In this document: positions 11,225 through 62,874 of the stretch, in pieces
How positions within the stretch are numbered: position 1 is the stretch's first letter
How the letters are laid out: each line of letters starts with the position of its first letter
Assembly (NCBI GenBank): GCA_902775895.1
Contig: CACYNO010000008.1
Span: 17,557 to 81,556 of the forward strand
DNA length: 64,000 nucleotides
Direction of reading: 5' to 3'
Source: an uncultured Lachnospiraceae bacterium
GTDB taxonomy: Bacteria > Bacillota > Clostridia > Lachnospirales > Lachnospiraceae
Notes under the pieces: model-generated
The model's database searches: none
Seen by the model: the letters and a program-made list of their open reading frames with translations, nothing else
Told to the model about the DNA's origin: nothing
Translations under genes and position numbers: made by a program

Positions 11225-11938
11225 TTATTCAACTTTGTTAAAATACAGATTTTTTTCCGTGCCGTCGAATCTTTCAAGATGTAATATGCCTTTCAGATCT
11301 TCCATTTCGGGAATGATCCTGGTAAGACGATCCATCTTTTCTTCCACATATTCATCCGATCCGCAAAGCACGGTAACATCCTTTATCTTTATGCTGACAT
11401 CACCGTTTTCGTCAAAGGATATCTTATCTGACGGTATCTGATGTTCGTTGAACGCTTTAGCAAATGACATGATCTTTTCTTTCATTTCCTCGTTTGCCTC
11501 AGATATATCCGCGCCCTCTTCCACAGGCGCAAATTCTATTCCTTCTATCTCAACAACTCCGTCGATAAGTCTGTCCGAAATGTCGGTAACGGTTCCTGTA
11601 TCGTCAAAGTAATTATATCCGGATTCAGTCTTAAAGAATCCAAGGTATTCCCTTTCATGTATTGTCAGTTTTAAAGTATTCGGATCCTGAATGCTCACAT
11701 CATACTTCTGTACAAACGGAACATGCTTGTTCTTTTTCCCAAAGATCTTATAAATGATCGAATTAGGAAGTTTACCTTCAAAAACGTACTCCGTGATCTG
11801 AGCATCTTCAAGACGTGTGTTGCCTTCGTAAACTATTTTTTTTGTCTTAAATCCGAAAATAATGACCAATACAGCAGTCGCAACAGCTCCTGCAACTATC
11901 AGCCCGGCAATAAGACCTCTTTTTTTTCTTTTTGTCAT
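11225..11938 (-). CDS. ftsQ: FtsQ/DivIB-type cell division protein
   Basis: 237 aa, N-terminal TM segment then POTRA-like region; position between ftsW and ftsZ. Confidence 0.65.
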   Translation of the reverse strand: MTKRKKRGLIAGLIVAGAVATAVLVIIFGFKTKKIVYEGNTRLEDAQITEYVFEGKLPNSIIYKIFGKKNKHVPFVQKYDVSIQDPNTLKLTIHEREYLGFFKTESGYNYFDDTGTVTDISDRLIDGVVEIEGIEFAPVEEGADISEANEEMKEKIMSFAKAFNEHQIPSDKISFDENGDVSIKIKDVTVLCGSDEYVEEKMDRLTRIIPEMEDLKGILHLERFDGTEKNLYFNKVE

Positions 11939-11940
11939 CG

Positions 11941-13161: not shown

Positions 13162-13163
13162 TA

Positions 13164-14531
13164 TTATGAATTTACATATTCTTTGAATTTACGTCCTCTG
13201 ACTTCGTAATTCGGAAACATATCCCAGCTGGCACACGCAGGCGAAAGTAGCACGCAGTCTCCGCTTTGTGCATCTCTTTTACATACGGCAACTGCCTCTT
13301 CCATATCCTTTACCTTAATGACATTTTCAAAGCCTGCTTTTTTTGCAGTTTCTGCTATCTTGTCTGCTGTCGTACCAAGTACCACAAGTTCTTTAACCTT
13401 GTCTCCGAAAGCCGCTATATATTCTTCAAAAGAACTGCTCTTATCGTAACCGCCTCCGATAAGGATAGTGGGCTTTCTCATCGCTTCTATAGCTTTGATG
13501 GAAGCATCCGGGTTCGTACCTTTTGAGTCATTATAATAATCAACGCCATTAACTGTGTTTACGAATTCTATACGATGCTCAACAGCTTTAAAATTCTTTA
13601 CTACTCTTGTAATCGTATCTACCGGAACTCCTGCTGCAACTCCTACGGCATATGCTGCCATCATATTTTCATAGTTGTGTGTTCCTAACAGATTAGTATC
13701 ATTAATGTTTACAAGCGGTGCCTTTTCCTCACCGTCCACTTTGTAGATAATGTCATCCTCAAAATAATAACCACGATCCGGTCTCTTTGTGCGTCCATAC
13801 CACACCACAGTCGCCGGACATCTGCTCTCACCGAATTCTCTGAGTCTTTCATCGTCATAATTCAGAACACAAACATCATCTTTAGTCTGGTTCTTACATA
13901 TGCTCTCTTTCACACGGGCATATTCATCCATGGTGTGGTGTCTGTCCAGATGATCCGGAGTTATATTTAAGATTGCTGCGATCTTCGGATGAAATGTGAT
14001 CATTGTTTCAAGCTGGTAGCTGCTGATTTCTGCAACCGATACTGAATCCTCAGTGGTCTTTTCAACCTCACTTGTATAAGGAATACCTATGTTTCCCACT
14101 ACAAAAGTATTTGCATTCCAGGCTTTGATTATCTCTCCTGTAAGAGTCGTGGTAGTAGTCTTTCCGTTCGTTCCCGTTATGGCAATGACTTCACCTTTTT
14201 CGAAACGATACGCAAGTTCTATCTCTCCCCATATGGTCTTGCCTTTTGCAACAACCCTCCTGAAAATCTCACTTTCCGGAAAAACCCCGGGACTTGGAAC
14301 AACCAGTACTGCAGACTCCAGCTCTTCTTCCGTAAGTTCTCCTATGATGATCTTTATCCTTTCATCCGCAAGATTTTCACGGATCTTTTCCACATTTACA
14401 TCAGGATTTTCTTCATAAAGGCATACATTTCCCACATGAGCCGACAAAAGATTTGCAGCATTGATACCGCTGACACCGGCTCCTATCACAATAGCTTTTT
14501 TAATATTATTTATGTCTTCCATTCTGATCAC
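13164..14531 (-). CDS. murD: UDP-N-acetylmuramoylalanine--D-glutamate ligase
   Basis: 455 aa, GTNGKTTTT P-loop, Mur ligase middle and C-terminal domains. Confidence 0.92.
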   Translation of the reverse strand: MIRMEDINNIKKAIVIGAGVSGINAANLLSAHVGNVCLYEENPDVNVEKIRENLADERIKIIIGELTEEELESAVLVVPSPGVFPESEIFRRVVAKGKTIWGEIELAYRFEKGEVIAITGTNGKTTTTTLTGEIIKAWNANTFVVGNIGIPYTSEVEKTTEDSVSVAEISSYQLETMITFHPKIAAILNITPDHLDRHHTMDEYARVKESICKNQTKDDVCVLNYDDERLREFGESRCPATVVWYGRTKRPDRGYYFEDDIIYKVDGEEKAPLVNINDTNLLGTHNYENMMAAYAVGVAAGVPVDTITRVVKNFKAVEHRIEFVNTVNGVDYYNDSKGTNPDASIKAIEAMRKPTILIGGGYDKSSSFEEYIAAFGDKVKELVVLGTTADKIAETAKKAGFENVIKVKDMEEAVAVCKRDAQSGDCVLLSPACASWDMFPNYEVRGRKFKEYVNS

Positions 14532-14551
14532 ACTGCCTTTCTTAAAAATCC

Positions 14552-16630
14552 TTATTCTTCTTCGTCTTCTTCATCTTGAATGTCTTTTTCGTCTTCATCA
14601 TTGTTTGCTTCATCCGTTTGATCTTCTACGGAAGTCTCCGTTTCCGTGGTTGTCTCTTCCCGGGTGTTATAATCTTCTATCTCTTGTTCCTCTTCTTTTT
14701 CGTAGTCATATTCCTCTGCATTATCAGGAGTCTCTACGCCTCCGTCAGGATTTTCTTCTTCCTCTTTCTCCGGCATCACCACATCCTTATCATCCGTTCT
14801 GCTGACGGTCAGATAAGGAAGAAGTTCTGTCATTATGGCCTTGGTCAACGTCTGGGAATCCATGCCGTCACCGCTCCCGCCCGTTGTTCCGTCCGGTTCA
14901 TCTATCAGTACATAAAGCAAAATCTTGGGATTATCCACGGGAGCAAAAGACATTACGGACACAAGCCACTTTTTATCTTTACGCGGTATTTTTTGCGCAG
15001 TTGCCGTCTTTCCGCCCATTGAATATCCTTCCACCTTTGAGTACTGTACGGCATATTGCTCAACTCCCGACTCCAGGTATCTCCTTATGGTATCTGAAGT
15101 TTCCTTCGTTACAGTCCTGCGGACAACGGAAGGATTGATAGTCTTTACCACATTTCCTTTTGAATCGGTTATCGCCTTGACCATATGCGGCTGATAATAA
15201 TTCCCTCCATTTATAAGAGAGGAATACGCTGCCACCATCTGGATCATATTGACGTTTATACTCTGTCCAAAGGAATTGGTCGCAACATCTATGTCCGTCA
15301 TGTTATCCGGGTCATAGATGATTCCTCTTTCTTCTCCGGGAAGATCTATGCCCGTCTTATTTCCGAATCCGAACATGGACTGATATTTGACCATAGTCTC
15401 AGCGCCAAGACTGAGACCTATATCCATAAGAGCCACGTTACAGGAATCCGCAAGCGCCTCTTCCAGATCAAGTTCACCGTGTCCGCCCCTGTCAATCCTC
15501 CAACACCCTACATCATAGCCTTCCACATATTTGCTTCCGGAACAGCTGAACCTGTCCCCGTCTTTTGCCTTTGCGGCTTCAAGGGCAGAGGCAACGGTAA
15601 TTGACTTAAAAGTGGAACCGGGTTCATATACCCTGGACGTACAGAAATTACTCCACAATGCGTAAAGCGTATCAGTGCGCTGATCTTCGTTCATCTTTTT
15701 TAACTCTTCAGGTTTATACACTCCCGTAAGATCCCTGGGATTGTTCAGATCAAAAAACGGGTAACTCGCCATCCCCAGTATCTCTCCTGAATTAGGATCC
15801 ATAGCGATAACTGCCGTATTTGCAGACGGTTTCTTTTTATTATATTCTTTTATGTATTTCTCAAGGATATTCTGAACACCGTAGTCCAATGTGGTTATAA
15901 TGTTATTACCGTCAACCGGTTCCTTTACTACCTTCTCCATTTCCATGTTTTCATCAATGTATGTATAAGATACCCCGTCAACTCCGGTAAGTTCATTATC
16001 ATATTTGATCTCCAGCCCTATCTCGCCTCCGTTTACCACGCTGGCAAAGCCGATAGCATCACAGGCCAGACTGTTGAAGGGATATGACCTGATAAAGGAA
16101 TCCTCAAACCACACCCCTGCTATATTCTTCTTCGTCTCATCTTCGCTGTCTTTTTCTTTATTTTCTTCTTCAAGTTTCAGGAAAGGTTCTATCTGGGATT
16201 CCTCTAAATTGGTGAGCATTTTTTCATATTTGCTGGACGGCTTTTTATTTAACTTGTCTTCTATATCCTCTCTTTTGATATCGAAATTTGAAACGAGGGC
16301 TTCGATAGTATCTCCTTTGTATTTACCGTCTTCTGATAACATTCTGTTCGGATCGATTATCAGATTGTAGACCTTTTTGCTGTATGCCAGTATGGTGCCG
16401 TTCCTGTCGCGGATCTCACCTCTTTTTCCGGTAATGGTTTTTGATGTAGTTGCCTGGTGATTTAACACTATCTTTGAATATTCCTCACCGCTCGTTACGT
16501 TTATCGCCACTACTCTTATAATCAGTATAACTGCGATTATTATAGCAACAAAAAAGGCAACGCCGGCTTTTGTTTTCATCCTGCCAAGCATTGTCTCTTT
16601 GTTTTTTTGTATATCGTTCTTCCTACTCAT
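14552..16630 (-). CDS. class B penicillin-binding protein (FtsI/SpoVD-like) with a long acidic C-terminal tail
   Basis: 692 aa, N-terminal TM, STFK active-site motif, SCN, KTA(T). Last about 100 aa are almost all D/E/T. Confidence 0.9.
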   Translation of the reverse strand: MSRKNDIQKNKETMLGRMKTKAGVAFFVAIIIAVILIIRVVAINVTSGEEYSKIVLNHQATTSKTITGKRGEIRDRNGTILAYSKKVYNLIIDPNRMLSEDGKYKGDTIEALVSNFDIKREDIEDKLNKKPSSKYEKMLTNLEESQIEPFLKLEEENKEKDSEDETKKNIAGVWFEDSFIRSYPFNSLACDAIGFASVVNGGEIGLEIKYDNELTGVDGVSYTYIDENMEMEKVVKEPVDGNNIITTLDYGVQNILEKYIKEYNKKKPSANTAVIAMDPNSGEILGMASYPFFDLNNPRDLTGVYKPEELKKMNEDQRTDTLYALWSNFCTSRVYEPGSTFKSITVASALEAAKAKDGDRFSCSGSKYVEGYDVGCWRIDRGGHGELDLEEALADSCNVALMDIGLSLGAETMVKYQSMFGFGNKTGIDLPGEERGIIYDPDNMTDIDVATNSFGQSINVNMIQMVAAYSSLINGGNYYQPHMVKAITDSKGNVVKTINPSVVRRTVTKETSDTIRRYLESGVEQYAVQYSKVEGYSMGGKTATAQKIPRKDKKWLVSVMSFAPVDNPKILLYVLIDEPDGTTGGSGDGMDSQTLTKAIMTELLPYLTVSRTDDKDVVMPEKEEEENPDGGVETPDNAEEYDYEKEEEQEIEDYNTREETTTETETSVEDQTDEANNDEDEKDIQDEEDEEE

Positions 16631-16655
16631 TTAAACCGGTTTCCTTGTGTTACTT

Positions 16656-17111
16656 TTACGGAATATCCTGATACTTCCTTATATATCCTTCTCCCTCGGC
16701 GTTATAAGTTCTTATCTGGCCTTTGTTGGGATATACCATCCCGTACTCTTTTGTTGCCTTATCATATATCTTGTTGTAATCAATATTGGTGTTGATCTCG
16801 GCTTCCAGCTCATCGTTCATGATGGTAAGCTCATTCAACTCCTCCTGCATTGCAGCCACGTCGCCGGACATACCTGCCATCTTTCCCCTTATGGTAAGGT
16901 ACTGTACACAGAATACGAAAATAATACCTGTAACCGCAACCATAGCCGCAAGATAAATCAGATTCTTTCTTTTTGCTCGTCCCGGTTGTTTGCGCGGGAC
17001 TTTCCGGGGCTCCTCCTCAGGAGGATAATCTATGCGCGGTGCGGTGGATAAGTCCATCGCCTCGCTTCCCGGGGAATAATAATCTGTATGCCTTCTGTTT
17101 TCTGCAGCCAT
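16656..17111 (-). CDS. FtsL-like cell division protein
   Basis: 151 aa, single TM plus coiled-coil, positioned between rsmH and the PBP gene. Confidence 0.5.
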   Translation of the reverse strand: MAAENRRHTDYYSPGSEAMDLSTAPRIDYPPEEEPRKVPRKQPGRAKRKNLIYLAAMVAVTGIIFVFCVQYLTIRGKMAGMSGDVAAMQEELNELTIMNDELEAEINTNIDYNKIYDKATKEYGMVYPNKGQIRTYNAEGEGYIRKYQDIP

Positions 17112-17158
17112 TGTAACCCCCTGCCTTTCTGAAACTTAAAAGAACGGTCGACTGTTTT

Positions 17159-18100
17159 TCAGTTTACCTTCTTTTCAAAAACCCTGAGCTTTGCGCTTTT
17201 TGATCTGGGATTGATCTCCATCTCTTCTTCGCCCGGCAAAATGGGTTTTTTTGTAATAACCTTTCCTTTTGATATCTTCCCACATACGCACACCGGAAAA
17301 TCCGGCGGACATGTACACGGGCTTTCCGCTTTTTTAAATGCGTTCTTTACTATCCTGTCTTCCAGAGAATGAAATGTGATGATACACAGCCTGCCACCGT
17401 CTTTTAGCAGATCTATCATCTCGGGTATCACTTTTTCTACACTCTCTAACTCTCCATTTATAGCAATCCTTATCGCCTGAAAGGTTCTTTTTGAGGGATG
17501 TCCTCCTTTTATGCGAAACCTTTCGGGAATTGCGGATCTGATAATATCGTTCAACTCAAAAGTTGTCTTAATGTGTGCTTTCTCTCTCTTACTGACTATG
17601 CAAGAGGCAATGGATGAAGCAAATTTTTCTTCTCCGTATTCCTTAAGGATACGTGTCAGTTCATCTTTCGAGGATCCGTTTACGATATCGGCTGCCGTCT
17701 TTGTCTGCCTCATGTCCATCCTCATATCAAGAGGTGCATCATTTTTATAAGAAAAACCCCTCTCCGGCGTATCGAGCTGGTGGGAAGATACCCCCAGATC
17801 CAGTACAATGCCGTCTGCTCCTTCAATACCCAGTTGCTCCAGCACCTCAGGCATACGGTCAAAATTACTCCTGACCGGAGTAAAGATGTCCGTATACTCT
17901 TTTAGTACATCCGATGCGGCTTCAATAGCCTCACCGTCTCTGTCTATTCCTATCAGCCGTCCTCTTTTCGAAAGCCTGCGGGCTATCATAAGGCTGTGAC
18001 CTCCGCCACCGAGAGTCCCGTCAACATAAATACCGTCTTCCTTTATATTCAGACTCTCGATCGTTTCCTCTAAAAGAACCGATACATGGCCAAAATCCAT
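17159..18100 (-). CDS. rsmH: 16S rRNA (cytosine1402-N4)-methyltransferase
   Basis: 313 aa, [13 protein letters not shown] motif, follows mraZ. Confidence 0.95.
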
Positions 18101-18109
18101 TTTTTCTCC

Positions 18110-18547
18110 TTAAATAACAAATCCCATATCCTGCATTCCGTCCAAAAGTCCGTCCATATTCTCACTGATATCTGACATATTGTTCTCCCAGCGTTCCTTA
18201 TCCCATATCTCGATATGTTTACCCACACCAACCATGCAGACCTCTTTTTTCAAGTCCGCATATGTTCGCAAGCCCGCAGGGACGAGTATGCGTCCCTGCT
18301 TATCAGGCTCACATTGTGTGACTCCCGCATGGAAGAATCGGGTCAATTCTCTTGCCCCTTTGTTAATAAGCGGTAATTTCTGAAGCTTTTCATCAAGAGC
18401 CTGCCATTCCAATTGGGTGTAGACAAACAAGCACCCGTCGAGTCCGCGGGTGATCATGAAGGAACCTCCAAGCTCTTCCCTGAAGCGGGCAGGCAGGATA
18501 AGGCGCCCTTTAGCGTCAAGCGTATGATAAAATTCACCATCAAACAT
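18110..18547 (-). CDS. mraZ: division/cell wall cluster transcriptional regulator MraZ
   Basis: 145 aa, duplicated DxxGR motifs (DAKGRLILP, DKQGRILVP). Confidence 0.95.
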   Translation of the reverse strand: MFDGEFYHTLDAKGRLILPARFREELGGSFMITRGLDGCLFVYTQLEWQALDEKLQKLPLINKGARELTRFFHAGVTQCEPDKQGRILVPAGLRTYADLKKEVCMVGVGKHIEIWDKERWENNMSDISENMDGLLDGMQDMGFVI

Positions 18548-18571
18548 AAGCCGTTTCTCCTGCCAAATCTA

Positions 18572-18606
18572 CCACTTTTCTCCACTAATCACTACTTTTT
18601 ACCACT
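18572..18606 (-). promoter_or_regulatory. candidate MraZ operator: four direct AGTGG/AGTAG boxes with exact 10-bp phasing
   Basis: Plus-strand CCACT at 18572, 18582, 18602 and CTACT at 18592, in the leader between the putative promoter and mraZ. Confidence 0.45.
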
Positions 18607-18615
18607 TACATGCAC

Positions 18616-18643
18616 ATAATATCACTTTAAATAGGAAAAACAA
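18616..18643 (-). promoter_or_regulatory. putative dcw/mraZ promoter
   Basis: Minus strand TTGTTT - 16 nt - (TGa)TATTAT extended -10. Confidence 0.4.
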
Positions 18644-18895
18644 GTGCGTATTTCTTTAAAAAATGGCTCAAACTCCGGTGTTTATGAAAGTGGGGACTTG
18701 TCCCGTTCTATATATAGTGGTCAAATTTAATTCATCACGCAATATATGCGCAATTATTATGTTGTTAAAATTATTATTATTTTTATAATATTATTTTATT
18801 AATTTTTTATTAACTGTTACCCTTGTTACTTATCTGCTTCTATGCTATATTTAGTCAGATATTTACAAAACAGTCCGTATTGTGGAGGTATATAA

Positions 18896-19990
18896 ATGAA
18901 ATTAGGAATCGTAGGTCTTCCGAACGTCGGAAAAAGTACACTTTTCAACTCACTTACCAAGGCCGGTGCAGACGCGGCAAACTACCCTTTCTGTACCATA
19001 GATCCGAATATCGGCATTGTCACGGTTCCTGATGAACGTCTTGAAAAACTTGCCGCTCTTTATAATTCTGAAAAGATAACACCCGCGGTTATCGAATTTG
19101 TAGATATAGCCGGACTTGTAAAAGGTGCATCCAAGGGCGAAGGTCTGGGAAACCAGTTCCTTTCAAATATCCGCGAAGTGGATGCCATAGTACACGTGGT
19201 ACGTTGTTTTGAAGATTCAAACATTGTCCATGTAGACGGCTCCATTGACCCTATCCGTGATATAGAGACTATTAATATGGAACTTATCTTCGCAGATATG
19301 GAGGTTCTTGAAAAAAGACTTTCCAAGCAGAAAAAGCTTGCCAACAACAATAAAGAGGCAGCAAAAGAAGTTGCTTTCATAGAAAAACTCATCTCCCACC
19401 TTGAGGATGGAAAACTTGCTCTCACACTTGATCTTACTGAAGATGAATCAGAGTATATGAAAGAATATAATCTTCTTACCGCCAAGCCGGTTATTTATGC
19501 AGCTAATGTTTCGGATGAGGATATATCAGATGATGCCGCAGGCAATGAAAACGTGGCAAGAGTAAGGGAATATGCCGCAAAGTCCGGCAGCGGTGTTTAT
19601 GTGGTATGCGCCCAGATAGAGGCAGAAATGTCAGATCTTGACGATGACGAAAAGAAGGAGTTTCTTGATGACCTGGGAATATCCTCATCAGGTCTGGACA
19701 AACTGATCACGGCAAGCTACGATCTGCTCGGACTTATCAGTTACCTTACTTCGGGTGAACCCGAGACCAGAGCCTGGACCATCAAAAAAGGCACAAAAGC
19801 ACCTCAGGCTGCAGGTAAGATACATACGGATTTTGAAAGAGGGTTTATTAAAGCAGAGGTCATCGACTGGAAGGAATTGCTCGAATGCGGATCACTGACC
19901 GCAGCAAAAGAAAAAGGACTTGTGCGCATGGAGGGCAAGGATTATGTCGTACAGGACGGAGATGTGATACTTTTCAGGTTTAATGTATAA
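18896..19990 (+). CDS. ychF: redox-regulated ribosome-binding ATPase YchF
   Basis: 364 aa, GLPNVGKST P-loop, C-terminal TGS-like domain. Confidence 0.95.
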   Translation: MKLGIVGLPNVGKSTLFNSLTKAGADAANYPFCTIDPNIGIVTVPDERLEKLAALYNSEKITPAVIEFVDIAGLVKGASKGEGLGNQFLSNIREVDAIVHVVRCFEDSNIVHVDGSIDPIRDIETINMELIFADMEVLEKRLSKQKKLANNNKEAAKEVAFIEKLISHLEDGKLALTLDLTEDESEYMKEYNLLTAKPVIYAANVSDEDISDDAAGNENVARVREYAAKSGSGVYVVCAQIEAEMSDLDDDEKKEFLDDLGISSSGLDKLITASYDLLGLISYLTSGEPETRAWTIKKGTKAPQAAGKIHTDFERGFIKAEVIDWKELLECGSLTAAKEKGLVRMEGKDYVVQDGDVILFRFNV

Positions 19991-20093
19991 AATAATACAC
20001 AAGGCTTTTTGCTCATTGCAATAACAAAAAAAGAAAAGGCAAACATTTCAGATATCTGAAAGTTTGACCTTTTCTTTTTATTGTCTGTATGTA

Positions 20094-53488: not shown

Positions 53489-53506
53489 AAAAGTCAGTAA
53501 AAATAT

Positions 53507-53585
53507 GCTCCCTACGTTGGCATTATCCAAATCAGGTTGGGTCGAAGTTGATTACTTCCTCTCAGCCCGCCTACGAGCTCCCCTG
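53507..53585 (-). promoter_or_regulatory. TPP (THI-box) riboswitch aptamer
   Basis: Minus strand GGGGAGC...CTGAGAGGAAG...ACCCAACCTGATTTGGATAATGCCAACGTAGGGAGC matches the conserved CUGAGA / ACCUGAU / GGAUAAUGCCA / CGUAGGGA blocks. Confidence 0.9.
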
Positions 53586-53598
53586 CTTTTCTTACCTT

Positions 53599-53664: not shown

Positions 53665-54069
53665 CTACTCTGCTTTAAATATTTCACCGCCATTTTCACC
53701 ATACACTACGAGCAGCCGGTCATCTTCTCCTTTTACTTTAAACACTTCCATGCCTGTCCCTGCATTAGATGACAAATCCGGGATTTTTTTTATTTCTTCA
53801 CTTGTGGTTACTCCGTTTACATCGTTTAAGTCTTTATAAAAGGTCTCCCCTATCTTATCACCTTTTAAGGATTCAATTTCCACCTCGTCCACATACTTAA
53901 CCGTTTGCCAATAAACATTGTCTCCGTACTTAACATACAGCAACATGTCTGATGTCGACATTTCACCGACTTCCTGCAATTCCTTCTCCGTCTCGTTTTG
54001 CGTGTTACAGCCGATGAATGATATGCTGCATAAAGATGCTGCAATAATGACCATTAACCTTTTTTTCAT
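53665..54069 (-). CDS. small lipoprotein
   Basis: Lipobox FIGC. RBS GGAGG lies in the 23-nt gap after the Res-like ORF. Confidence 0.55.
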   Translation of the reverse strand: MKKRLMVIIAASLCSISFIGCNTQNETEKELQEVGEMSTSDMLLYVKYGDNVYWQTVKYVDEVEIESLKGDKIGETFYKDLNDVNGVTTSEEIKKIPDLSSNAGTGMEVFKVKGEDDRLLVVYGENGGEIFKAE

Positions 54070-54092: not shown

Positions 54093-56219
54093 TTACACAC
54101 CTAAAAGTTTTTCAATATCTTCCTTATATTCGCTAATCCTTTTTTCAACATTAAAGAAATGTAAACCCCATATCCGATATTCGTTATCATCCTTTAGAAC
54201 CTTGACCGGGATGGCCTCTTCTCTCATCTGAAGCAGGAACTCCTCTTTCCACGCGTCCTTCTCCAGAAGGTGGGTGCCCTTTGGTTCAATAAATATCTGC
54301 ATCTGCTCGAAGCCGTCCGTCTTCTTCTTTTGCAGGAAGAGGACATAGTCGGGCTCGAAACGCTCACCGCCTTCAAAGGAGTACAGGTGGAACTCGCGCT
54401 CGTTTCTGACAAGGTATATCTTGCAGTAAACGTCCCTTAACTCATCCACATAGTTACGGAAATAGGCAACAAATGCCTTTTCCTCTGACGTACCGTAATT
54501 ATCCATGTATGCAAACCAGTCTGCTGCAGAAAGATCGATTCTCCAATCCTTTCTGACAGATGGATCGTTTTGCGATACACCTATGCCACCGTCGTGAGGA
54601 TCGGTGATGTTAACCGTCTTGTTCTTGAAGACCTCATGCACCTTGTGCGCCCGGAACTCCTTGGTGCCGTAGTATGTTTCTTCTATCTTCGAAATCGATC
54701 TGGCAACCTTCCCAAGCACGTAAAAGGCAGCATCGTGCATCGTCTGCATAGTCGGTTGCCCCTCTTTGCTGTGGATGTCAATCCGAATGCCGCCAAGGTA
54801 TTCGTCGCTCATCACGAACTCCCTCGTGGATTTGATGTTCGGGAAGTACGAATGCAGGGTGTTGAACTTGAAAATCGGATACTTCATCAGTGCTTTGTGG
54901 ACAAGCGCGTAGTTGCGTTTTGCCATCTCACCAATCGTCATCCTGCTCGTCTTCAACTCAACCTTTGTATCGGTGCTACCGGAAGTGTCATCCATAATGA
55001 CATCCATGCCGGACACTCCGGTCGCGGTGGTAAAGCTGTAAATGTTGTCGCGAACAGATGGAAGTAGCCCATGCACTTCCTTCCTGTCCTTAACCTTGCG
55101 GTCGTTTATGAAAACAAGCCCCTGCTTGTACAAATCGTCAGTTTTGAAAAGATCCTTAAGCACATACTCGCGCTGGACAGTCTTTTCGGTATCCAAGCCA
55201 ATCTCGCGTAGGGCGTTGTGAAGCTCAGTCACATATCGGTGATTGTTCTGGCAGTGGTAGTAAAGCTCCTCGCAAATGCGCATCTCGTTCGTGATGTCGT
55301 CATCGTACTTGCGCTGATACTTCGGCTGCTCGTCATCCAGCTGGAACGGACAGTACCTTGCACCGCGCCCAATCAGCTGTGCTTCCGATATCGTTGCCGG
55401 GGATATCTTCTTTCCACCCGATTGTCTTGTTTCGTAAAGGCGGACGATGTCGAAGAGGTTTAGAACGTCCCAGCCTTCGTCGAGCTTCTTGACCTCGAAG
55501 ATGGCTCTGTACGGATTGTCCTGATCCTCCAGCGAGTTCAAGAGAATCTGTTTCTGCGTGGCATCCTTGTCGTCGTTGACGGACACGCAGTGCTGCTCCG
55601 CGAAATCATCTCGCAATTCCTGCGCAAGCGTGTCAAGGGAAATGCCGTTTGCCGCAAAGTAGTCGAACGCTTTCTGCATGGTCGGATTGTCGATGGCGTT
55701 GGATAATTTGCGCAGCTGTTCGCCCGTCAGCTTGGATACTGTCTCGATAAACTCCGCCATGAAATCTTTGCTGTCAGCAATCTTTGCAGCCTTGAAGAGT
55801 ATCACCGGTTTGATGGCCAGACGATTGTCTTGGAATACCTTCAGCCGGTACTGGCTCAACACGAGTGCCTGCAAAGCCCTCTCCATGATGGCGAGGTCGG
55901 AGCGTAACGTGATGATGTCTTTCGAGTACTGGTCGTGGTAGAACTGCTCCAGCGGATAATTGAACACGATCTTGCTCTCATAGGCTGCCCGGATTGCCTG
56001 ATTCTCGAGATCGCATGTCGCCGTGAACTCAAGCAGCACATTCTCGTTGTTCTTGTAGAAAATACTCTTTACCGTGCTCTCCCATGAGTGGTAGTAGCTC
56101 TCTTCCTCGGCAGACATCTTCTTCTTGGTATCCACATTCAGGTGATGAGCCTCGTCAGCGTATGTCAAGATAGGTCTAACACTTTTTTCTGCCATTTTTT
56201 CGATGGCAGAAATCATCAC
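54093..56219 (-). CDS. Type III restriction Res-like helicase/nuclease lacking its N-terminal Walker A region (5'-truncated; possibly a pseudogene or one half of a split gene)
   Basis: 708 aa. DEAH at aa 22-25, LEFTATC, LDEGWDVLNLF, QLIGRGAR, C-terminal FEPDYVLF...IFIEPKG PD-ExK block. No GxGKT. The frame is closed 4 codons upstream of the start. Confidence 0.7.
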   Translation of the reverse strand: MMISAIEKMAEKSVRPILTYADEAHHLNVDTKKKMSAEEESYYHSWESTVKSIFYKNNENVLLEFTATCDLENQAIRAAYESKIVFNYPLEQFYHDQYSKDIITLRSDLAIMERALQALVLSQYRLKVFQDNRLAIKPVILFKAAKIADSKDFMAEFIETVSKLTGEQLRKLSNAIDNPTMQKAFDYFAANGISLDTLAQELRDDFAEQHCVSVNDDKDATQKQILLNSLEDQDNPYRAIFEVKKLDEGWDVLNLFDIVRLYETRQSGGKKISPATISEAQLIGRGARYCPFQLDDEQPKYQRKYDDDITNEMRICEELYYHCQNNHRYVTELHNALREIGLDTEKTVQREYVLKDLFKTDDLYKQGLVFINDRKVKDRKEVHGLLPSVRDNIYSFTTATGVSGMDVIMDDTSGSTDTKVELKTSRMTIGEMAKRNYALVHKALMKYPIFKFNTLHSYFPNIKSTREFVMSDEYLGGIRIDIHSKEGQPTMQTMHDAAFYVLGKVARSISKIEETYYGTKEFRAHKVHEVFKNKTVNITDPHDGGIGVSQNDPSVRKDWRIDLSAADWFAYMDNYGTSEEKAFVAYFRNYVDELRDVYCKIYLVRNEREFHLYSFEGGERFEPDYVLFLQKKKTDGFEQMQIFIEPKGTHLLEKDAWKEEFLLQMREEAIPVKVLKDDNEYRIWGLHFFNVEKRISEYKEDIEKLLGV

Positions 56220-57184
56220 TAAAACCCATACTTTATCTCAAACGCTTTCCTCTTAGCTGCTTCTTCATCTTGCAAATCATAAAACTCGTTTGCCGGTTTA
56301 AGTTGTATTCTATCTTCATCAATGCCTGCATCTATGAGGCTTTGTCTCATTGAGTTCATCTTATTCGGATCAAACCATATAAGCGTCCAAACAACATTCT
56401 TCCCGCTTAATAAATCTATATTACTGAAGTAGGGCATATCAATTCCCGCTAAAGAATGACCAGCCACAATTATCTCCGTGATATCCTCGTTTGCAATTCT
56501 TTGCAAATTATACATATAACGATTAATATCCTTTAAGGTGGTTCTATAATAGTCTTTTACCACCTTACAAATGCTTATCTCTTTTTCGTCAAAAACTTCT
56601 TCCGCACTCTTCTGTTTTTGTCCTATCGCCTCTATTCTTGCTAAATTGCCGTGTCCCAAAACTGGATCATCGGTGTAATCTCTAAGTGATCCATGTATAT
56701 GAATAACAGATGAATCTGAGATACCATAAACTTTTTCAAGCGTAGCTGTATAGTTGAAGTTGATGTACAAATCACGATTATCCTTATTGATCTGAGATAC
56801 CTTAGGAAGAGTATCTCTGATTTTTATTGTCCTTATCCATCTCTTCAGATATACCGCCAGCTTATTTATATACTGGTATTCTTTTGTAAAATAATCATAT
56901 AGTGTATCTTCTATGCCAACATCACCAGACTCTAAGTCCATTTCAATTGATGTAGCATTCTCAATAATAATATCCTCATCTATATTCGCTAAATTTGTCT
57001 CCAGTTCATTCCAGAGCAATTTCTTTTTTGCATCATCAGACATATTCGGATATATATAATAATGTTCCTCAAATGCTTGGAGAAAATCATAAGCAACATG
57101 CTCAAGATATGTTCTGAAATCCCAGTATTGCGTTGGCAATCTATGTGCTATGTCAAATCCGTTTCCTATAATGTATAATTTCAC
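56219..57184 (-). CDS. AbiH-family abortive infection protein homologue
   Basis: 321 aa, MKLYIIGNGFDIAHRLPTQYWDF, VIHIHGS, IIVAGHSLAGIDMPYF. GTG start 8 nt after GGGAAGAG. AT-rich relative to its flanks. Confidence 0.7.
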   Translation of the reverse strand: MKLYIIGNGFDIAHRLPTQYWDFRTYLEHVAYDFLQAFEEHYYIYPNMSDDAKKKLLWNELETNLANIDEDIIIENATSIEMDLESGDVGIEDTLYDYFTKEYQYINKLAVYLKRWIRTIKIRDTLPKVSQINKDNRDLYINFNYTATLEKVYGISDSSVIHIHGSLRDYTDDPVLGHGNLARIEAIGQKQKSAEEVFDEKEISICKVVKDYYRTTLKDINRYMYNLQRIANEDITEIIVAGHSLAGIDMPYFSNIDLLSGKNVVWTLIWFDPNKMNSMRQSLIDAGIDEDRIQLKPANEFYDLQDEEAAKRKAFEIKYGF

Positions 57185-57189
57185 TGTTC

Positions 57190-57402
57190 TTACTCTTCCC
57201 TCTTCACATAATGCAGCTCAATATCGTATCCCAGAGCCTCCATCATCTGAACAAACGTATTATTCACCACTCCGTTCGGCTTCTTGATGACGCGGTTCAC
57301 GTAGGACTTGGTGGTCTCGATCTGCTCAGCCACCGCTGCCTGTGTAGTCCCTTCTTCTATGCATTTTACTTTTACATCTATTTCAATATTGTTTCTTACC
57401 AT
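57190..57402 (-). CDS. small XRE/Cro-like HTH protein
   Basis: ...GTTQAAVAEQIETTKSYVNRVIKK... The ORF track starts at GTG 57435. The ATG at 57402 fits the promoter and RBS better. Confidence 0.6.
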   Translation of the reverse strand: MVRNNIEIDVKVKCIEEGTTQAAVAEQIETTKSYVNRVIKKPNGVVNNTFVQMMEALGYDIELHYVKREE

Positions 57403-57449
57403 ATTCGCTCTTACCCTGTTCTCAATCAGTTTCACAAAACAGATAACTT

Positions 57450-57478
57450 ATTGTACCATGAAATATGCGTTTTTTCAA
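57450..57478 (-). promoter_or_regulatory. promoter of the HTH/AbiH-like/Res-like unit
   Basis: Minus strand TTGAAA - 17 - TACAAT. Confidence 0.55.
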
Positions 57479-57480
57479 CG

Positions 57481-57514
57481 AAAAAAGAGCCGGTCAGATC
57501 ACTCCAACCGACTC
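57481..57514 (-). terminator. rho-independent terminator after the last recombinase gene
   Basis: Minus strand GAGUCGGU...ACCGGCUC stem followed by UUUUUU, 5 nt after the stop at 57520. Confidence 0.6.
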
Positions 57515-57519
57515 CTATC

Positions 57520-59139
57520 TCATTCCTGCAACAGCTTCAGAACCTCATCTGAGAACTTCCAGCGTATCTCCACATGCCTTGGATCATAAACAACTACCTT
57601 ATCAACCAAAGCCTGCACAATCTTCTGATCAAGCTCCGTGCCCCCGGAAAACTTATCCAGCGTTTCCAAAGCATCCTGCGTGCCATCATCCTGTACAACC
57701 TCTGCCTCATGAAGCCTCTCTTCCAGCTCTGCTATCTCTGCATCAAGCCTCTCAGCCCTCCGTGTCAGATCAGCACGCCTGCTCTGATATACATCCTTAT
57801 CCAGAGTACCGGCCATAAACTGATCAACATTGGCAAACCGCTCCGCATCACATTTTTCTCTGTCCTTCTGTAGCTTTGCCAGCATCTTAACTAGCCTGGA
57901 ATTATCCCGATCAGCTTCCTGCTGCCTCTGTCTCACCTTTTTCTTTGCATCTTCCGCTGTACTCAGCAGAGCTTTGATGGATTCCCAGACAACCTCATTA
58001 AGCACATCCTCCCGGATATATTCCTTACTACAGCCACCATCTCCGACCTGAGCCTGAGAATGCGGGCATCCGAAATATCTATAAGGTCTGCCTCTGATGA
58101 TTCTATCCTTAAACGGCATCGCCCGACCACAAGTGCCGCATCTGACTTTCTTCCATAAAGGATAGCTCTTATCTGTTACCTGCTTTGTCTCACGGCGCTT
58201 ACGAAAAATCTTCTGAGCCTCCATGAACTCTTCCTTCGTTACAATCCCCGGATGCTTACCCTCGACAATAATCTGTTCATCCTTTGGTATCGCTACGGAA
58301 TGCTTCCAGCCAACACCAATACCTTCACGCCTATGCCCCACTACAGCTCCATAATACATTTCTTGTTTTAGAGTACGCCTGACTGAATTATGGTTCCAGC
58401 AGTCCAGTTCCGAAGTATTCTTAAACTTATTCTTCTCCGGATGTTTCCGCTGATAATATCGTGCAGGTGTCTCGTACCCCTTTTCGTTGAGCAGTCTGGC
58501 TATATCCGTGATCCTCATACCGCTTATCGCAGCTTCAAATATTTCTCTGACAATAGGTGCCGCTTCAGGATCAACCGTCAACTTATGATAATCCTCCGGA
58601 TCTTTCATAAGCCCAAATGGCACATGACCGCCAATATATTCTCCGCGTTTCATCTTCGCACGTTTAGCTGTCGTGACCTTTACCGAAAGGTCTTTGCTGT
58701 AATAATCATATACGATATTCTTCATCACCACATCGAGTCCACCAGTGGTTCCCTTGTAGTCCAGACTATCGTAATGATCATTGATGGAAATGAACCGAAC
58801 ACCCAGGAACGGAAAAATACGTTCCAAGTAATCACCCAGCTCAATGTAATCACGGCCAAAACGGGAAAAGTCCTTCACAATGACACAGTTGATGGTTCCA
58901 CCCTTAATCTTTTCCAACAGTCGCTCAAATGAAGGCCGCTCGAAATTAGTGCCGCTGTATCCGTCATCAAAGAATTCGTACTGCTCGCATCCGGCAAGTT
59001 CAGGATCACCACTTATGAAATTCTGTATCAACGCTTTTTGGTGGGAAATACTTTCACTTTCAGCTTTGTTTTCCCGTATCATCAGGTCACGATCAGCCTG
59101 AGACAATCGGATGTATTTCCCTATCACCCATTTACCCAT
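57520..59139 (-). CDS. large serine recombinase (third in the tandem set)
   Basis: 539 aa, YIRLSQAD catalytic Ser, VKDFSRFGRDY, recombinase domain, CGTCG...C zinc ribbon, coiled-coil tail. Confidence 0.9.
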   Translation of the reverse strand: MGKWVIGKYIRLSQADRDLMIRENKAESESISHQKALIQNFISGDPELAGCEQYEFFDDGYSGTNFERPSFERLLEKIKGGTINCVIVKDFSRFGRDYIELGDYLERIFPFLGVRFISINDHYDSLDYKGTTGGLDVVMKNIVYDYYSKDLSVKVTTAKRAKMKRGEYIGGHVPFGLMKDPEDYHKLTVDPEAAPIVREIFEAAISGMRITDIARLLNEKGYETPARYYQRKHPEKNKFKNTSELDCWNHNSVRRTLKQEMYYGAVVGHRREGIGVGWKHSVAIPKDEQIIVEGKHPGIVTKEEFMEAQKIFRKRRETKQVTDKSYPLWKKVRCGTCGRAMPFKDRIIRGRPYRYFGCPHSQAQVGDGGCSKEYIREDVLNEVVWESIKALLSTAEDAKKKVRQRQQEADRDNSRLVKMLAKLQKDREKCDAERFANVDQFMAGTLDKDVYQSRRADLTRRAERLDAEIAELEERLHEAEVVQDDGTQDALETLDKFSGGTELDQKIVQALVDKVVVYDPRHVEIRWKFSDEVLKLLQE

Positions 59140-60853
59140 TCTGAACAGCTCCCTTCTTCATTTCCCTGAAAATACGGTCAAGCACATCTTTCTGTTCTCT
59201 GAACTTAAACTCTACCTCAACGCGATTATCCTCATAGATCAGAACTTTCTTCACAAGGGCATTAACCAAATCCTGATCCAGTTCCGTAGCATCTTCTACC
59301 TTATGCATAGCTTGAAGCCATTCATTATTTGCAGTAAGCACACCATCCAGCTCCTTTTTTCTCGACTTTGCCTCAGAAAGCTGCTTCTCCAAACTGGCAT
59401 ACTCTTCATCATAGGATTTCTTCGCATACTGGTAGTCCGCCTCATCAAGGATTCCTTCAGCAAAACTCTCAAACAATCCCTCCCTGCGTGAATTGACCTT
59501 TTTCAGTTCCTGCGTCAAATAATTCACCTTCGCAACATACTGATCAATCAGATTACGTTCTTTCGCCGTTCCGCGGAGCTTCTGCATCATCTTTTCTTGA
59601 TTGAGCGCATATTCCATCTGCACCTGCATTGCTGCAAATACCGCATCCACCACATCCTGATAACGAATGCTGTGTCTCGTGCAATTCCTGTAACCGCTGT
59701 CGAGATAACCGCCACAGACATAATTGGTGTAATAGAAGTTCTTATCCCTTAGCGCATTGTTGCCCTTTACAAAACGCATCCGCTTTCCACAATCTCCACA
59801 GTAGATCCTCTTTACGAACAGGTTGACAATCTTATCCCTTACCTGCTTTGATTCTGCCCATTTCTTCTGCATCCTCGCGGATCTCTCGTCAAAGATTTTC
59901 TGAACCTTATCGAACAGCTCCTGGCTGACAATTGCTTCATGTGCATCAGGAATACATCTCCATTCGTCCGGCTTTGCCCTATGGCACTTTATTCCCTGAT
60001 ATAAGGACTTCGGCATCCTCCCATACACCAGCGTCCCGGTATAAGTTGCATTCTTCATAATGTCAATGATTGTCCGTCCATGCCAAATTGTATGCTTATA
60101 CTTCTCAGCATGCCAGATTCCCAACTCTACCTTCCGCCTTGCAGGTGTAACGGCTCCCATGTCATTCAGCCTCTTGCAAATCTCGCTATGAGAAACACCT
60201 GCTGCCTTCCATTCAAAGATCATTCTCACATATGGAGCGACATCTTCATCTACCTCATATCTGTAAGCCTTGGTCTTTGATTTCACATAGCCATATGGCG
60301 GAAATGCCGGAAGATATTCTCCTTTTTCCTGCCGTGCTCTGAAGCTGGTGATGATCTTTCTGGAAATATCCTTTGCGTAGACATCATTGATCATATTTTT
60401 CAAAGGGATCATCAAAGCGCCTTCTGCGTCACCGGCGGTCAAGCTGTCATATCCATCCGTGATGGAAATGAACCGGACTCCCAGAAACGGAAATATCTTT
60501 TCCAGATACTCACCGGCTTCGATATAATCACGCCCAAACCTCGACAGATCCTTCACCAGAACGCATTTCACCTTACCGGCACGGACATCATCCATAAGCC
60601 GATTGAACTCCGGCCTGTCAAAGTTTGTTCCCTTTTTACCGTTATCCTCATATATGTCATAGAGTTTCAGATCCGGATGCTCTTCCACATATTCTTTGCA
60701 AATGCTTGTCTGATTCTCAATGGAATCCCCATCATCATCTTTACCACTGTTTTCAATAGACAGCCTCACATATATTCCCGTCATGGTATATGAGGCTGTC
60801 ACGATTGACGTATCTATCTTCTGATTGACATTTTTTCTGCTCTTTCTTGCCAT
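59132..60853 (-). CDS. large serine recombinase (second)
   Basis: YVRLSIEN, VKDLSRFGRDY, CGDCG zinc ribbon. Start at MARKSRK after GGAGG (ORF track 60967). ATGGGTAA overlap with the next gene. Confidence 0.9.
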   Translation of the reverse strand: MARKSRKNVNQKIDTSIVTASYTMTGIYVRLSIENSGKDDDGDSIENQTSICKEYVEEHPDLKLYDIYEDNGKKGTNFDRPEFNRLMDDVRAGKVKCVLVKDLSRFGRDYIEAGEYLEKIFPFLGVRFISITDGYDSLTAGDAEGALMIPLKNMINDVYAKDISRKIITSFRARQEKGEYLPAFPPYGYVKSKTKAYRYEVDEDVAPYVRMIFEWKAAGVSHSEICKRLNDMGAVTPARRKVELGIWHAEKYKHTIWHGRTIIDIMKNATYTGTLVYGRMPKSLYQGIKCHRAKPDEWRCIPDAHEAIVSQELFDKVQKIFDERSARMQKKWAESKQVRDKIVNLFVKRIYCGDCGKRMRFVKGNNALRDKNFYYTNYVCGGYLDSGYRNCTRHSIRYQDVVDAVFAAMQVQMEYALNQEKMMQKLRGTAKERNLIDQYVAKVNYLTQELKKVNSRREGLFESFAEGILDEADYQYAKKSYDEEYASLEKQLSEAKSRKKELDGVLTANNEWLQAMHKVEDATELDQDLVNALVKKVLIYEDNRVEVEFKFREQKDVLDRIFREMKKGAVQNG

Positions 60854-60863
60854 CGTTTGCCTC

Positions 60864-62492
60864 CTATTCTGCTGCTGTTCCTGAGTAATTTCCCAACAGC
60901 TCAACCAGCTTTGTGTACTGATCGCCGTATCTGAAACATAGCCTGATTTTCTTATCCTCATGAACAATTATTTCTTCCAGCAACTCCACAACAGTCTTAC
61001 GCTCAATGGAAGTGATATTCTGATATTTCTTAAAGATATCGATCCATGCATAATTCTCACGGTTTTGCTCTATGGCCTGCTGCCGTTCCTGTTCTACTGC
61101 TACAATTGCAGCTTCAGCAGACTGGATCTTACTCTCGTAGCTTTTTTTGAAAAGGAAGTATTCTTCCTGCCCAATCATTCCCTCCTGCAAGTTCTCATAT
61201 AACTTCATTTTGAAGCTACGATTTCGCTCGATATCCTCCTTCAGCTTCACGATCTGAGCATCATAATTGAAAACGTTTCTCTGTGTCTCCGGCAGAGACT
61301 CAACAATCTTCAATAGTTCTTCCATTTCTATAACACTGGCCACTCTACTGCGTATTCCCTGAAGCACCGCATCATTTAGCTCATCATCTGTAATCTGATG
61401 AGTGCTGCAGCCCTTTCCGGCTTTCCTTGTAGAGCAAATATAATAGGTGTACCGTTTGTCTCCAGAAGTATATGTCTTCCTCACCATATTCTGACCACAA
61501 TCACCGCATTTCAGATATCCTGAAAATGGATACACCACTTCTTCATCCGGTGCAGAACGAATATCCTTTTGTAGGATCCGCTGCACATCATCAAATGTTC
61601 TCCGGTCAATGATCGCCTCATGGGCATCCTCAACGCGAATCCATTCTGTCTCATCCTTCGCAACAATCTTCTTCACCTTATAATTTGGTGTACTGGTCTT
61701 ACCTTGTATCAAGGCCCCGGTATATATTTCGTTTGTCAAAATTCTCGTCACCGATCTTGGAGACCACAAAGCCTGCTTGCGCACCTTAAAGTTTGTCTGA
61801 ACCTTGATACCCATAGACAGCTTATACTCCATCGGACAGAGCACACCCTGTAGGTTCAACTTCTCCGCAATCCGTCCCTGGCTCATCCCTTCAAGCTTCC
61901 ACTTATAAATTGCTCTCACAACCTCGGAAGCATAAGTATCAGGGATCAGCCTGTTATGATCTTCTGGATCCTTTAAATATCCGTACACAGCAAAAGCACC
62001 GATAAACTGTCCTTTCTTCCTCTTGATCTCTAACTGACTGCGGATTTTCACAGAGATATCTTTGCAGTATGCGTCATTGATCAGATTCTTAAAGGGAATA
62101 ATCAGTGAATCGGACTGGTTTCGGTCAAGGCTGTCGTAACTATCATTGATAGCAATAAAGCGAACACCCATAAATGGAAAAACTCGCTCAATGTAATTAC
62201 CAGCCTCTATATAATTTCTTCCAAAACGGGAAAGGTCTTTGACAACCACGCAGTTTACCTTCCCGGAGCGAATGTCTTCCATCATCTCCTGGAATGCCGG
62301 TCTGTCAAAATTGACACCGGAATAACCATCGTCGGTTTTTTCTGAAACCACATGGATCTCCGGATGCTTTGATATGAAGTCCCTGATTAGGGCTCTTTGA
62401 TTGGTGATACTGTCGCTTTCCAGCTTATCACCGTCATCACGCGACAGTCTCGCATAAATACATGCGTTGTATTCTTTCGATAAAACACTCAT
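60864..62492 (-). CDS. large serine recombinase (first)
   Basis: 542 aa, YARLSRDD, VKDLSRFGRNY, CGDCG zinc ribbon. Confidence 0.9.
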   Translation of the reverse strand: MSVLSKEYNACIYARLSRDDGDKLESDSITNQRALIRDFISKHPEIHVVSEKTDDGYSGVNFDRPAFQEMMEDIRSGKVNCVVVKDLSRFGRNYIEAGNYIERVFPFMGVRFIAINDSYDSLDRNQSDSLIIPFKNLINDAYCKDISVKIRSQLEIKRKKGQFIGAFAVYGYLKDPEDHNRLIPDTYASEVVRAIYKWKLEGMSQGRIAEKLNLQGVLCPMEYKLSMGIKVQTNFKVRKQALWSPRSVTRILTNEIYTGALIQGKTSTPNYKVKKIVAKDETEWIRVEDAHEAIIDRRTFDDVQRILQKDIRSAPDEEVVYPFSGYLKCGDCGQNMVRKTYTSGDKRYTYYICSTRKAGKGCSTHQITDDELNDAVLQGIRSRVASVIEMEELLKIVESLPETQRNVFNYDAQIVKLKEDIERNRSFKMKLYENLQEGMIGQEEYFLFKKSYESKIQSAEAAIVAVEQERQQAIEQNRENYAWIDIFKKYQNITSIERKTVVELLEEIIVHEDKKIRLCFRYGDQYTKLVELLGNYSGTAAE

Positions 62493-62634: not shown

Positions 62635-62874
62635 TCATCTGTTCCGCAGATAATGCTCCATGCAATCCTCCAGTGTCAGATCTGTATCTGCAAACTCCAT
62701 CTTCACTACAACGTTCCCACACTTGAACAAATACGGATTTTTGATCTGACGGATAAAGTCTTTTATTCTCTCGACCTTTGGCAATGTTCTGTCAATATGT
62801 ACATCATGGATATCAACCAATTCATCTCTGCTGGCCGTTCTAACATCCACAGCTTTCATTTCTTCTAATGTCAT
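62635..62874 (-). CDS. small conserved hypothetical protein (DUF6870-like by recollection)
   Basis: 79-aa ORF directly upstream of the recombinase triplet. The family assignment is from memory only. Confidence 0.4.
   Translation of the reverse strand: MTLEEMKAVDVRTASRDELVDIHDVHIDRTLPKVERIKDFIRQIKNPYLFKCGNVVVKMEFADTDLTLEDCMEHYLRNR

Follow-up and report, generated by a model that had tools for sequence, protein, structure and literature searches.

The segment at positions 54093–57478 (minus strand) of a 64-kb stretch of DNA from an uncultured Lachnospiraceae bacterium (contig CACYNO010000008.1; hereafter the window, i.e., the whole stretch analyzed) represents, with a probability of about 0.93, the attachment site attR at one end of a prophage that has split a Type III restriction gene (res) at the codons of its DEAH motif, the gene for an AbiH-family protein being phage-borne cargo. 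Comparison with related contigs shows, at the level of assembled sequence, the exchange itself, the identity of both res halves with an intact allele and the travelling of AbiH with the phage. The segment contains three open reading frames (ORFs) on the minus strand: a helix-turn-helix (HTH) ORF at 57190–57435 (81 aa from GTG 57435, 70 aa from ATG 57402), the AbiH-family gene at 56219–57184 (321 aa, GTG start), which occupies a variable cargo slot, and a 708-aa ORF at 54093–56219 (GTG start). The HTH stop and the AbiH GTG are spaced by 5 nt, and the AbiH/708-aa ORF boundary reads TAGTGATG, a stop-start overlap. An earlier note on this DNA, from which these coordinates, the gap and the TAG overlap were confirmed, had taken the segment either for a decayed restriction-modification (R-M) remnant next to AbiH or for a composite defence module of AbiH and an ATPase-dead helicase/nuclease scaffold.

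The 708-aa ORF matches the PADLOC profile REase_III at positions 188–849 of 873 (E = 6.6e-92), while a Pfam search yielded no match of its own. It retains motifs II–VI of superfamily 2 (SF2) helicases (DEAH, aa 22–25; TAT, 66–68; QLIGRGAR, 281–288) and the C-terminal PD-ExK nuclease block (FEPDY/IEPKG, 621–648), all at the positions described before. Motif I (Walker A, GSGKT) is indeed absent from the ORF, which begins at profile position 188 and is thus devoid of ~185 N-terminal profile positions, and no Mod gene is present within the 64 kb. The best 120 homologues are nearly all 865–900 aa long with an N-terminal DEAD/ResIII domain, and intact res homologues carry a Mod gene directly upstream. 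Alignment with the homologues reveals similarity beginning exactly at D22, whereas residues 1–21 (MMISAIEKMAEKSVRPILTYA) align to nothing; at the corresponding place the homologues read ...QKVVLISDEAHH, with GSGKT ~110 residues upstream. Likewise, DNA-level homology to intact res genes starts at window position 56156–56158. The ORF is a chimera of 21 codons from the left arm of the phage attachment site (attP) in frame with res codons 181–867.

The complementary sites attL and attP were recovered by protein look-ups. Searching with the first 182 residues of the nearest intact Res as query retrieved attL in the form of a 193-aa protein (P0122) which consists of Res 1–181, DYAIIGLSQRAA and a stop, and carries GSGKT. 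Its contig (L075) encodes, in this order, an esterase, an ABC transporter, Mod (640 aa), the Res 1–181 fragment, a SymE-like protein, ParA and ParB. The empty host site (attB) was located by means of the flanking gene for a 134-aa lipoprotein-like protein, found directly after res in the window (53665–54069, minus strand) and after an intact 867-aa Res in seven of the ten places shown (L077–L083). These contigs derive from same-species strains and carry the same esterase and ABC genes, Mod (640 aa), the intact 867-aa Res, the lipoprotein and thiC. Contig L077 is 99.91 % identical to L075 at 1–7915 and 99.984 % identical to window positions 56156–44000 at 7914–20070; the two matches overlap by 2 nt, GA, which are bases 1–2 of codon 181 for the Asp of DEAH. 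The attP form of the same phage is present in three contigs with identical AbiH (L204, L207, L210), where AbiH is directly followed by the SymE-like protein, ParA and ParB. L204 matches the phage side of the window at 99.97 % identity as far as position 7030 and L075 at 100 % from position 7029 on, again with the 2-nt GA as overlap; the phage arm in the window (56157–56210) is 100 % identical to its attP form in L204.

The attP sequence accordingly reads ...TTAGACCTATCTTGACATACGCT-GA-TGATTATGCAATAATAGGTCTAAG... and that of attB ...GTCGTGCTCATATCC-GA-CGAGGCTCATCACCTG..., with attR (window) composed of attP-left and attB-right and attL of attB-left and attP-right. Such a quartet of attB, attP, attL and attR, related by reciprocal exchange at one dinucleotide, is what marks the attR of a serine integrase. 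In the window, phage DNA extends from 56157 upwards, the crossover dinucleotide GA occupies 56155–56156 (minus strand), and host DNA begins at 56154 with the res 3' part (54093–56154, minus strand; third base of codon 181 to codon 867 plus stop). The phage-derived attP left arm (56157–56210, minus strand) supplies codons 1–21 of the 708-aa ORF and contains an inverted repeat (TCTGCCAT, 56210–56203; ATGGCAGA, 56195–56188) as well as one terminal repeat (TTAGACCTAT, 56179–56170). The G+C content changes from ~0.50 in the res part to ~0.34 in AbiH, and does so inside 200 nt around 56200. Motif I and Mod are missing from the window because both are situated, as deduced from L075, at the other prophage end. 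The res fragment in the window is free of internal lesions and, together with its downstream flank, almost identical to the intact allele of the same species, in keeping with a recent insertion present in some strains and absent from others.

In the attP of a related phage (L011), the 10-bp perfect inverted repeats TTAGACCTAT and ATAGGTCTAA delimit 48 bp centred on GA, the usual attP layout of serine integrases. A scan of viral contigs for the right arm ATAATAGGTCTAAGTCNNNNRGCCGC returned only L011 and no additional attL or attP sites. Further attL examples encode GLVLIDE|YDIIGLS, DFIVVDD|YEIIGLS and FDCIILDE|YAIIGLS at the junction. Outside the 48-bp core attP, 32–55 nt from the crossover, the second conserved inverted repeat TCTGCCAT-N7-ATGGCAGA (56188–56210, minus strand) may be bound by a second recombinase or by a directionality factor; a conserved ATG comes after it in frame.

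Two proteins of similar length were considered as instances of the same insertion and rejected: P0006 (712 aa) is a frameshifted res adjoining Mod, and P0058 (718 aa) differs in what lies upstream. Among strains of the same species, some have a res gene shortened in another way in front of the same lipoprotein gene (L084, 954–2228; L085, 81–800), with products of 424 and 239 aa and different upstream DNA, so that the locus is variable beyond the prophage insertion. Intact res relatives also occur in defence islands, e.g., in L001 (1270–11318) together with HTH_26, HamA plus helicase (Hachiman-like), Type III mod-res and an Mrr-like nuclease.

The HTH gene is preceded on the minus strand by three tandem genes for large serine recombinases (LSRs; 57520–59139, 59132–60967 and 60864–62492), and still farther upstream lie a DUF6870 gene (62635–62874) and the 3' part of an endolysin gene with a Glucosaminidase domain (62992 to the window end). 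In a contig with the same sequence (L003), the region beyond the recombinases encodes DUF6870, an Amidase_2/Glucosaminidase endolysin and a holin, the holin gene lying beyond the window. Recombinases, DUF6870, endolysin and holin together identify this region as a prophage end. All three recombinases match Pfam Resolvase, Recombinase and Zn_ribbon_recom; DUF4368 scores 31.9 bits in the second (cut-off 25) and 19–22 bits, below cut-off, in the other two. The trio is kept in ~30 IMG/VR contigs with the shared order lysin, three recombinases and HTH. Among INPHARED genomes, relatives of the third recombinase reach at most 35 % identity, i.e., no close phage genome is deposited there. The three paralogs share ~32–35 % identity with one another and are retained in every family member. 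For the second, two starts are conceivable: a TTG giving 611 aa and an overlap of ~100 nt with the first gene, or the start called on public contigs, giving 573 aa.

The HTH gene directly follows the third recombinase gene in ~25 IMG/VR relatives, whatever the cargo, and is a core phage gene ahead of the cargo slot. Its conserved start is MV(R/K)NNIE, from the ATG, and its match to HTH_3 is weak (E = 0.0019, below cut-off). A terminator hairpin (57485–57516, minus strand; 14-pair stem plus T-run) ends the third recombinase gene just upstream of a sigma-70-type promoter (TTGAAA-17-TACAAT, 57478–57450, minus strand), which has 10 of 12 consensus positions, a TG extended -10 and the best consensus match of the region. 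The earlier promoter and HTH calls are hence borne out, the latter with a sub-threshold profile match. Hairpin, promoter (as TTGAAA-17-TAnnnT) and MV(R/K)NNIE start are conserved in diverged relatives; the promoter is kept in those whose third recombinase (SR539) is ~62–98 % identical. It probably drives the HTH gene and the cargo slot. On the minus strand, terminator-like sites are found only at 57516–57485, upstream of the promoter, and at 53488–53460; as previously noted, none lies between the HTH, AbiH and 708-aa ORFs.

At the left end of the phage (L075, 10881–20582; L204, 7369–12966), the SymE-toxin-like protein and ParA/ParB are encoded beside attP, together with a trio of CTD11, MC7 and DUF2326, an HTH_26 gene and an own 1076-aa SNF2/ResIII helicase. 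The occurrence of the attP form in three metagenome contigs suggests an active phage.

This arrangement is best explained by the following course of events. A phage carrying at one end three recombinases of a TndX-like kind (with DUF4368 above cut-off in the second), a promoter, a small HTH gene, a cargo slot with AbiH and the attP left arm recombined with res at the GA of the DEAH Asp codon (motif II, codon 181). Res codons 1–181 and the intact Mod stayed at the far (left) prophage end, while res codons 181–867, fused in frame with 21 phage codons, became the seemingly Walker-A-less 708-aa ORF. A Res protein without the motif I-bearing N-terminal third cannot hydrolyse ATP. Since Mod remains intact, the lysogen is most likely restriction-minus and modification-plus. 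AbiH is presumably expressed from the phage promoter during lysogeny and would serve as superinfection or abortive-infection cargo. The res fragment may be transcribed by read-through, with no effect on function, and precise excision would be expected to restore res.

The insertion into a Type III res is only one instance of a wider pattern. Twelve viral contigs, identified by their recombinase or AbiH independently of the site, share the conserved ~55-nt phage arm followed by a different sequence in each; 11 of them encode an in-frame D-E-x-H and one represents attP. The phage with identical AbiH is joined to a DUF3427 helicase (L202, L205), to a PLD helicase (L206, L211), to an EcoEI-type HsdR followed by hsdM (L208) and to another ResIII helicase near vsr (L209), i.e., identical AbiH stands beside five different helicases, the Type III res of the window included, and in addition in the attP form. 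Scanning species genomes with the arm yielded 33 junctions in 33 species records, mostly of Lachnospiraceae, and every junction with enough readable downstream sequence runs into helicase motif III. The pattern used for scanning metagenomes ended at the crossover GA and left the host side unconstrained; among the 117 junctions obtained, 113 encode D-E-x-H, three DE-x-Q/W and one EEAH.

Pooling of these sets gave 157 junctions with 107 distinct host 42-mers and 92 distinct 13-residue target peptides. Positions of high information content are limited to GA|Y-GAR-KSN-CAY-CR (+1 to +12); further out the values are low. In the window, the 14-nt consensus occurs once, at the integration site, against a chance expectation of 0.07. 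Judged from these alignments, it is close to certain that the target is the ~12-bp sequence GA|YGAR-KSN-CAY-CR encoding D-E-x-H-(H/R), and not res as such. Pfam analysis of ten representative downstream fragments assigned Helicase_C or Type I R-subunit domains to all of them; eight match ResIII only at positions 131–164 of 164, i.e., over the last 34 positions, and are thus cut at motif II. The target types comprise EcoR124-type and EcoEI-type HsdR, DUF3427 helicases, a PLD helicase and three with Helicase_C only, which from their motifs read as SNF2-like or methylase-helicase-like. The family is inserted in Type I HsdR, Type III Res, DUF3427, PLD, SNF2-like and other restriction/defence-type helicases of many Lachnospiraceae. 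RecQ, RecG and UvrB were not recognisable among the target peptides by eye, no formal test having been made.

One of the targeted SNF2-like helicases (L014, 13100–18589) is followed by a 488-aa protein that looks alkaline-phosphatase/PglZ-like. In another contig (L191, reverse complement), two phage-arm/helicase junctions are located 3.5 kb apart on one strand (2786 and 6352), with the 3' fragment of one helicase enclosed in the cargo region of the element that follows. Elements may thus have inserted into one another, or prophages residing in different helicase genes may have recombined, a process that could rearrange chromosomes.

The identification of AbiH, based on sequence motifs in the earlier note, is confirmed by profile search: residues 3–269 match Pfam PF14253 over profile positions 1–259 of 260 (E = 4.5e-52; 178 bits versus a cut-off of 30.9), and PADLOC assigns AbiH with E = 3.6e-29. 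The exact AbiH protein occurs on 50 contigs and the exact 708-aa ORF on three. Among the ~30 IMG/VR contigs with the order lysin, recombinases and HTH, AbiH comes next in one only (L008), and a 62 % identical AbiH is found in an unrelated context (L009). The cargo slot, measured from the HTH stop to the conserved attP arm, spans 686–5896 nt and holds 48 protein clusters in 68 loci; conserved promoter and HTH serve this generic slot and not AbiH specifically. Annotated cargo includes ApeA-type HEPN, GmrSD (three clusters), TIR-like, GNAT, DUF2971, DUF4209/PDC-S39, DUF4238, GTPase and ORF6N proteins, while many, if not most, of the 48 clusters are without annotation. PADLOC analysis of the ten commonest unannotated cargo proteins was mostly negative, with one clear (PDC-S39) and one weak match (PDC-S31) to candidate models, so that the designation as a defence hotspot derives from the minority of annotated members.

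Three contigs carry internally deleted remnants of the element that lie within a helicase gene and have kept attL and attR on either side (L048, reverse complement, 4215–6480; L062, reverse complement, 1304–3085; L173, 2682–12295). In L048, the HTH gene, two cargo genes (one GNAT) and the tail of the third recombinase are all that is left. Cargo may thus persist as fixed host genes after the phage itself is lost.

A composite defence module, in which HTH protein, AbiH and an ATPase-dead Res-like helicase/nuclease would be co-expressed and act together, was the more far-reaching proposal of the earlier note, and its arguments were the stop-start overlap and the lack of an intergenic terminator. 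The overlap is wholly phage DNA, however, as are the first 21 codons of the 708-aa ORF; in the attP form TAGTGATG is unchanged and the same frame ends after ~35 codons, a dead-end ORF, so that the overlap did not evolve as a coupling of AbiH with Res. The recurrence of a truncated Res neighbour expected under this proposal was not observed: the same phage is fused to four other, unrelated helicases, relatives carry 47 other cargo clusters in place of its AbiH, joint occurrence of HTH, AbiH and truncated Res was not found in other genomes, and Res homologues are full length with Mod and never beside AbiH. One might still argue that the fusion is always in frame and that the phage arm preserves an in-frame ATG (ATGGCAGAA). 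The frame, however, follows from the crossover being fixed at codon positions 1–2, and selection for a fusion protein was rejected as unproven, since only one of three arm frames is open, the open stretch measures 14–21 codons and the phase is set by the crossover. Moreover, among 63 distinct junctions with at least 2.1 kb downstream, the ORF is shorter than 350 aa in 21 and shorter than 200 aa in 13, compared to 400–690 aa for intact remainders of most target families. Many downstream fragments, about one third of the distinct ones, carry premature stops and do not appear to be under selection, even though some families may be naturally short. Decayed fragments and deleted remnants are in keeping with neutral decay once the element has inserted, not with a scaffold maintained by selection. 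A composite module is therefore highly improbable.

Just as improbable is a plain R-M remnant, the res 5' end of which would have been lost by deletion or decay independently of the AbiH cassette. The absence of motif I and Mod from the window, and the frameshift or truncation of other res homologues (P0006, P0058), would agree with such a history, but the missing 181 codons and Mod are intact at the other end of the same phage, the break is a single dinucleotide common to attB, attP, attL and attR, and what remains of res matches the intact allele at 99.98 % identity. This simpler proposal of the earlier note was nevertheless right in that AbiH and res are no partners and res is inactivated. 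Its expectation of full-length homologues (865–900 aa with GSGKT and adjacent Mod, never beside AbiH) was also essentially borne out; it erred in assuming decay, since res was cleanly split by the very element that carries AbiH.

Somewhat less remote, though still unlikely, is an active lysogeny in which the prophage is kept in res as a host-serving switch and its regulated excision toggles restriction, similar to prophages in comK or spsM. Both res halves are undamaged and could be rebuilt by precise serine-recombinase excision, and the attP form of the same phage is present in metagenomes. On the other hand, no sign of regulated excision without lysis was found, more than 90 different helicase genes are hit instead of one conserved host locus, many targets decayed after insertion, and some elements are deleted remnants. 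Target decay and deleted remnants fit a parasitic insertion better than a maintained switch.

Several points weigh against the prophage-junction interpretation or parts of it. The ATG in the phage arm is conserved, and the truncated Res could be translated from it. All evidence stems from assemblies, and many of these are metagenomic. The prophage extends past the end of the window, and its attL is deduced from contigs of other samples (L075) with 99.9–100 % identical flanks. The junction census, performed with an exact 25–28-nt pattern from one arm, samples part of the family, and for some targets the attribute "defence" comes solely from Pfam domains. AbiH expression, the restriction-minus, modification-plus phenotype and read-through into the res fragment are deductions.

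Prophages that split genes by means of serine integrases are classical, e.g., SPbeta in spsM, skin in sigK and A118-like phages in comK. The present prophage shares with them the location within a coding sequence, the lack of target duplication and the possible restoration of the gene by precise excision; it differs in that each of them uses one specific gene, whereas the family described here uses a short motif common to unrelated genes, the majority of which encode restriction or defence helicases. Compared to EcoP15I-like Type III Res, the 3' fragment has the same motifs II–VI and C-terminal PD-(D/E)xK and the reconstructed locus is likewise mod-res, but tens of kb separate the two parts of the gene, from which no complete Res is possible. 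AbiH resembles that of Lactococcus in its full-length PF14253 match and in being a single, mobile-element-borne gene; here it is prophage cargo of Lachnospiraceae downstream of a conserved phage HTH gene.

The recombinase TndX of Tn5397 crosses over at GA and prefers DNA encoding the Fic domain (Mullany et al. 2015, PMC4430133). Common to both systems are an LSR with DUF4368 (here the second of the three recombinases), the GA crossover and conserved-domain coding DNA as target, while the element described here differs in being a tailed-phage-like prophage with three tandem recombinases directed to D-E-x-H codons across helicase families. A DUF4368-rich clade of "multi-targeting" LSRs including TndX-like enzymes was described by Durrant et al. 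(2022, PMC10083194), and by gene-cluster criteria the present phage family would be classed as multi-targeting. For other LSRs in that study, targets were not enriched in the neighbourhood of defence genes; the term "helicase" is absent from it, and no mention of helicase targets was found in PMC10083194 or PMC4430133. Serine recombinases of integrative and mobilisable elements in S. suis insert into the SNF2 gene of Tn5252-type integrative and conjugative elements (Libante et al. 2019, PMC7168690). This is likewise an insertion inside an SNF2/helicase-methylase gene, and one target of the present family (L051, DEAHNYKNL) resembles that gene class; however, those elements are small and mobilisable with a single target gene, and no cross-family motif targeting was described (PMC7168690). 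Defence or moron hotspots at the ends of prophages such as P2/P4 share the fixed slot at the att side, interchangeable defence genes and a phage promoter (PMC13586616), yet belong to another phage family, and the slot of the present family adjoins a junction by which a host defence gene is destroyed. LSR integration at a GA core and sites defined by a protein motif are thus rated as known, and the D-E-x-H target together with the cargo hotspot as new. In the literature covered, which was incomplete, no description of a phage family or of recombinases targeting D-E-x-H was found, an absence that is no proof.

A broader proposition is put forward tentatively, with doubt slightly outweighing confidence: that the attB of this phage family is a ~12-bp motif II coding sequence, that its use knocks out a restriction or defence helicase and installs a swappable defence gene, and that this previously undescribed arrangement has adaptive anti-defence value. 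If so, the phages would find a landing site in almost any host, and integration would be a combined host-range and anti-defence or "defence-swap" strategy disabling Type I HsdR, Type III Res, DUF3427, PLD/TOTE and SNF2-type genes. A short attachment site defined by a protein motif illustrates how a single phage can lysogenise many species, at several loci per genome. Disabling restriction or defence helicases while sparing Mod would bear on how prophages reshape the immunity of gut hosts. The slot at the junction side offers a catalogue of candidate defence genes, and recombinases recognising ~12 bp around a GA core may be of interest as programmable or multi-site integration tools. For annotation, "truncated DEAD/DEAH helicases" beside serine recombinases should be expected to be split genes, as with the "Walker-A-less helicase" of the window, which is half of an ordinary res gene; a lead towards an AbiH/Res composite is thereby removed.

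Downstream of the lipoprotein-like gene, a thiamine pyrophosphate (TPP) riboswitch (53492–53594, minus strand; Rfam RF00059, 63 bits) is located upstream of thiC and heads the operon thiC-thiD-thiS-thiG-thiH-thiF. The terminator-like site at 53488–53460 is probably its expression platform.

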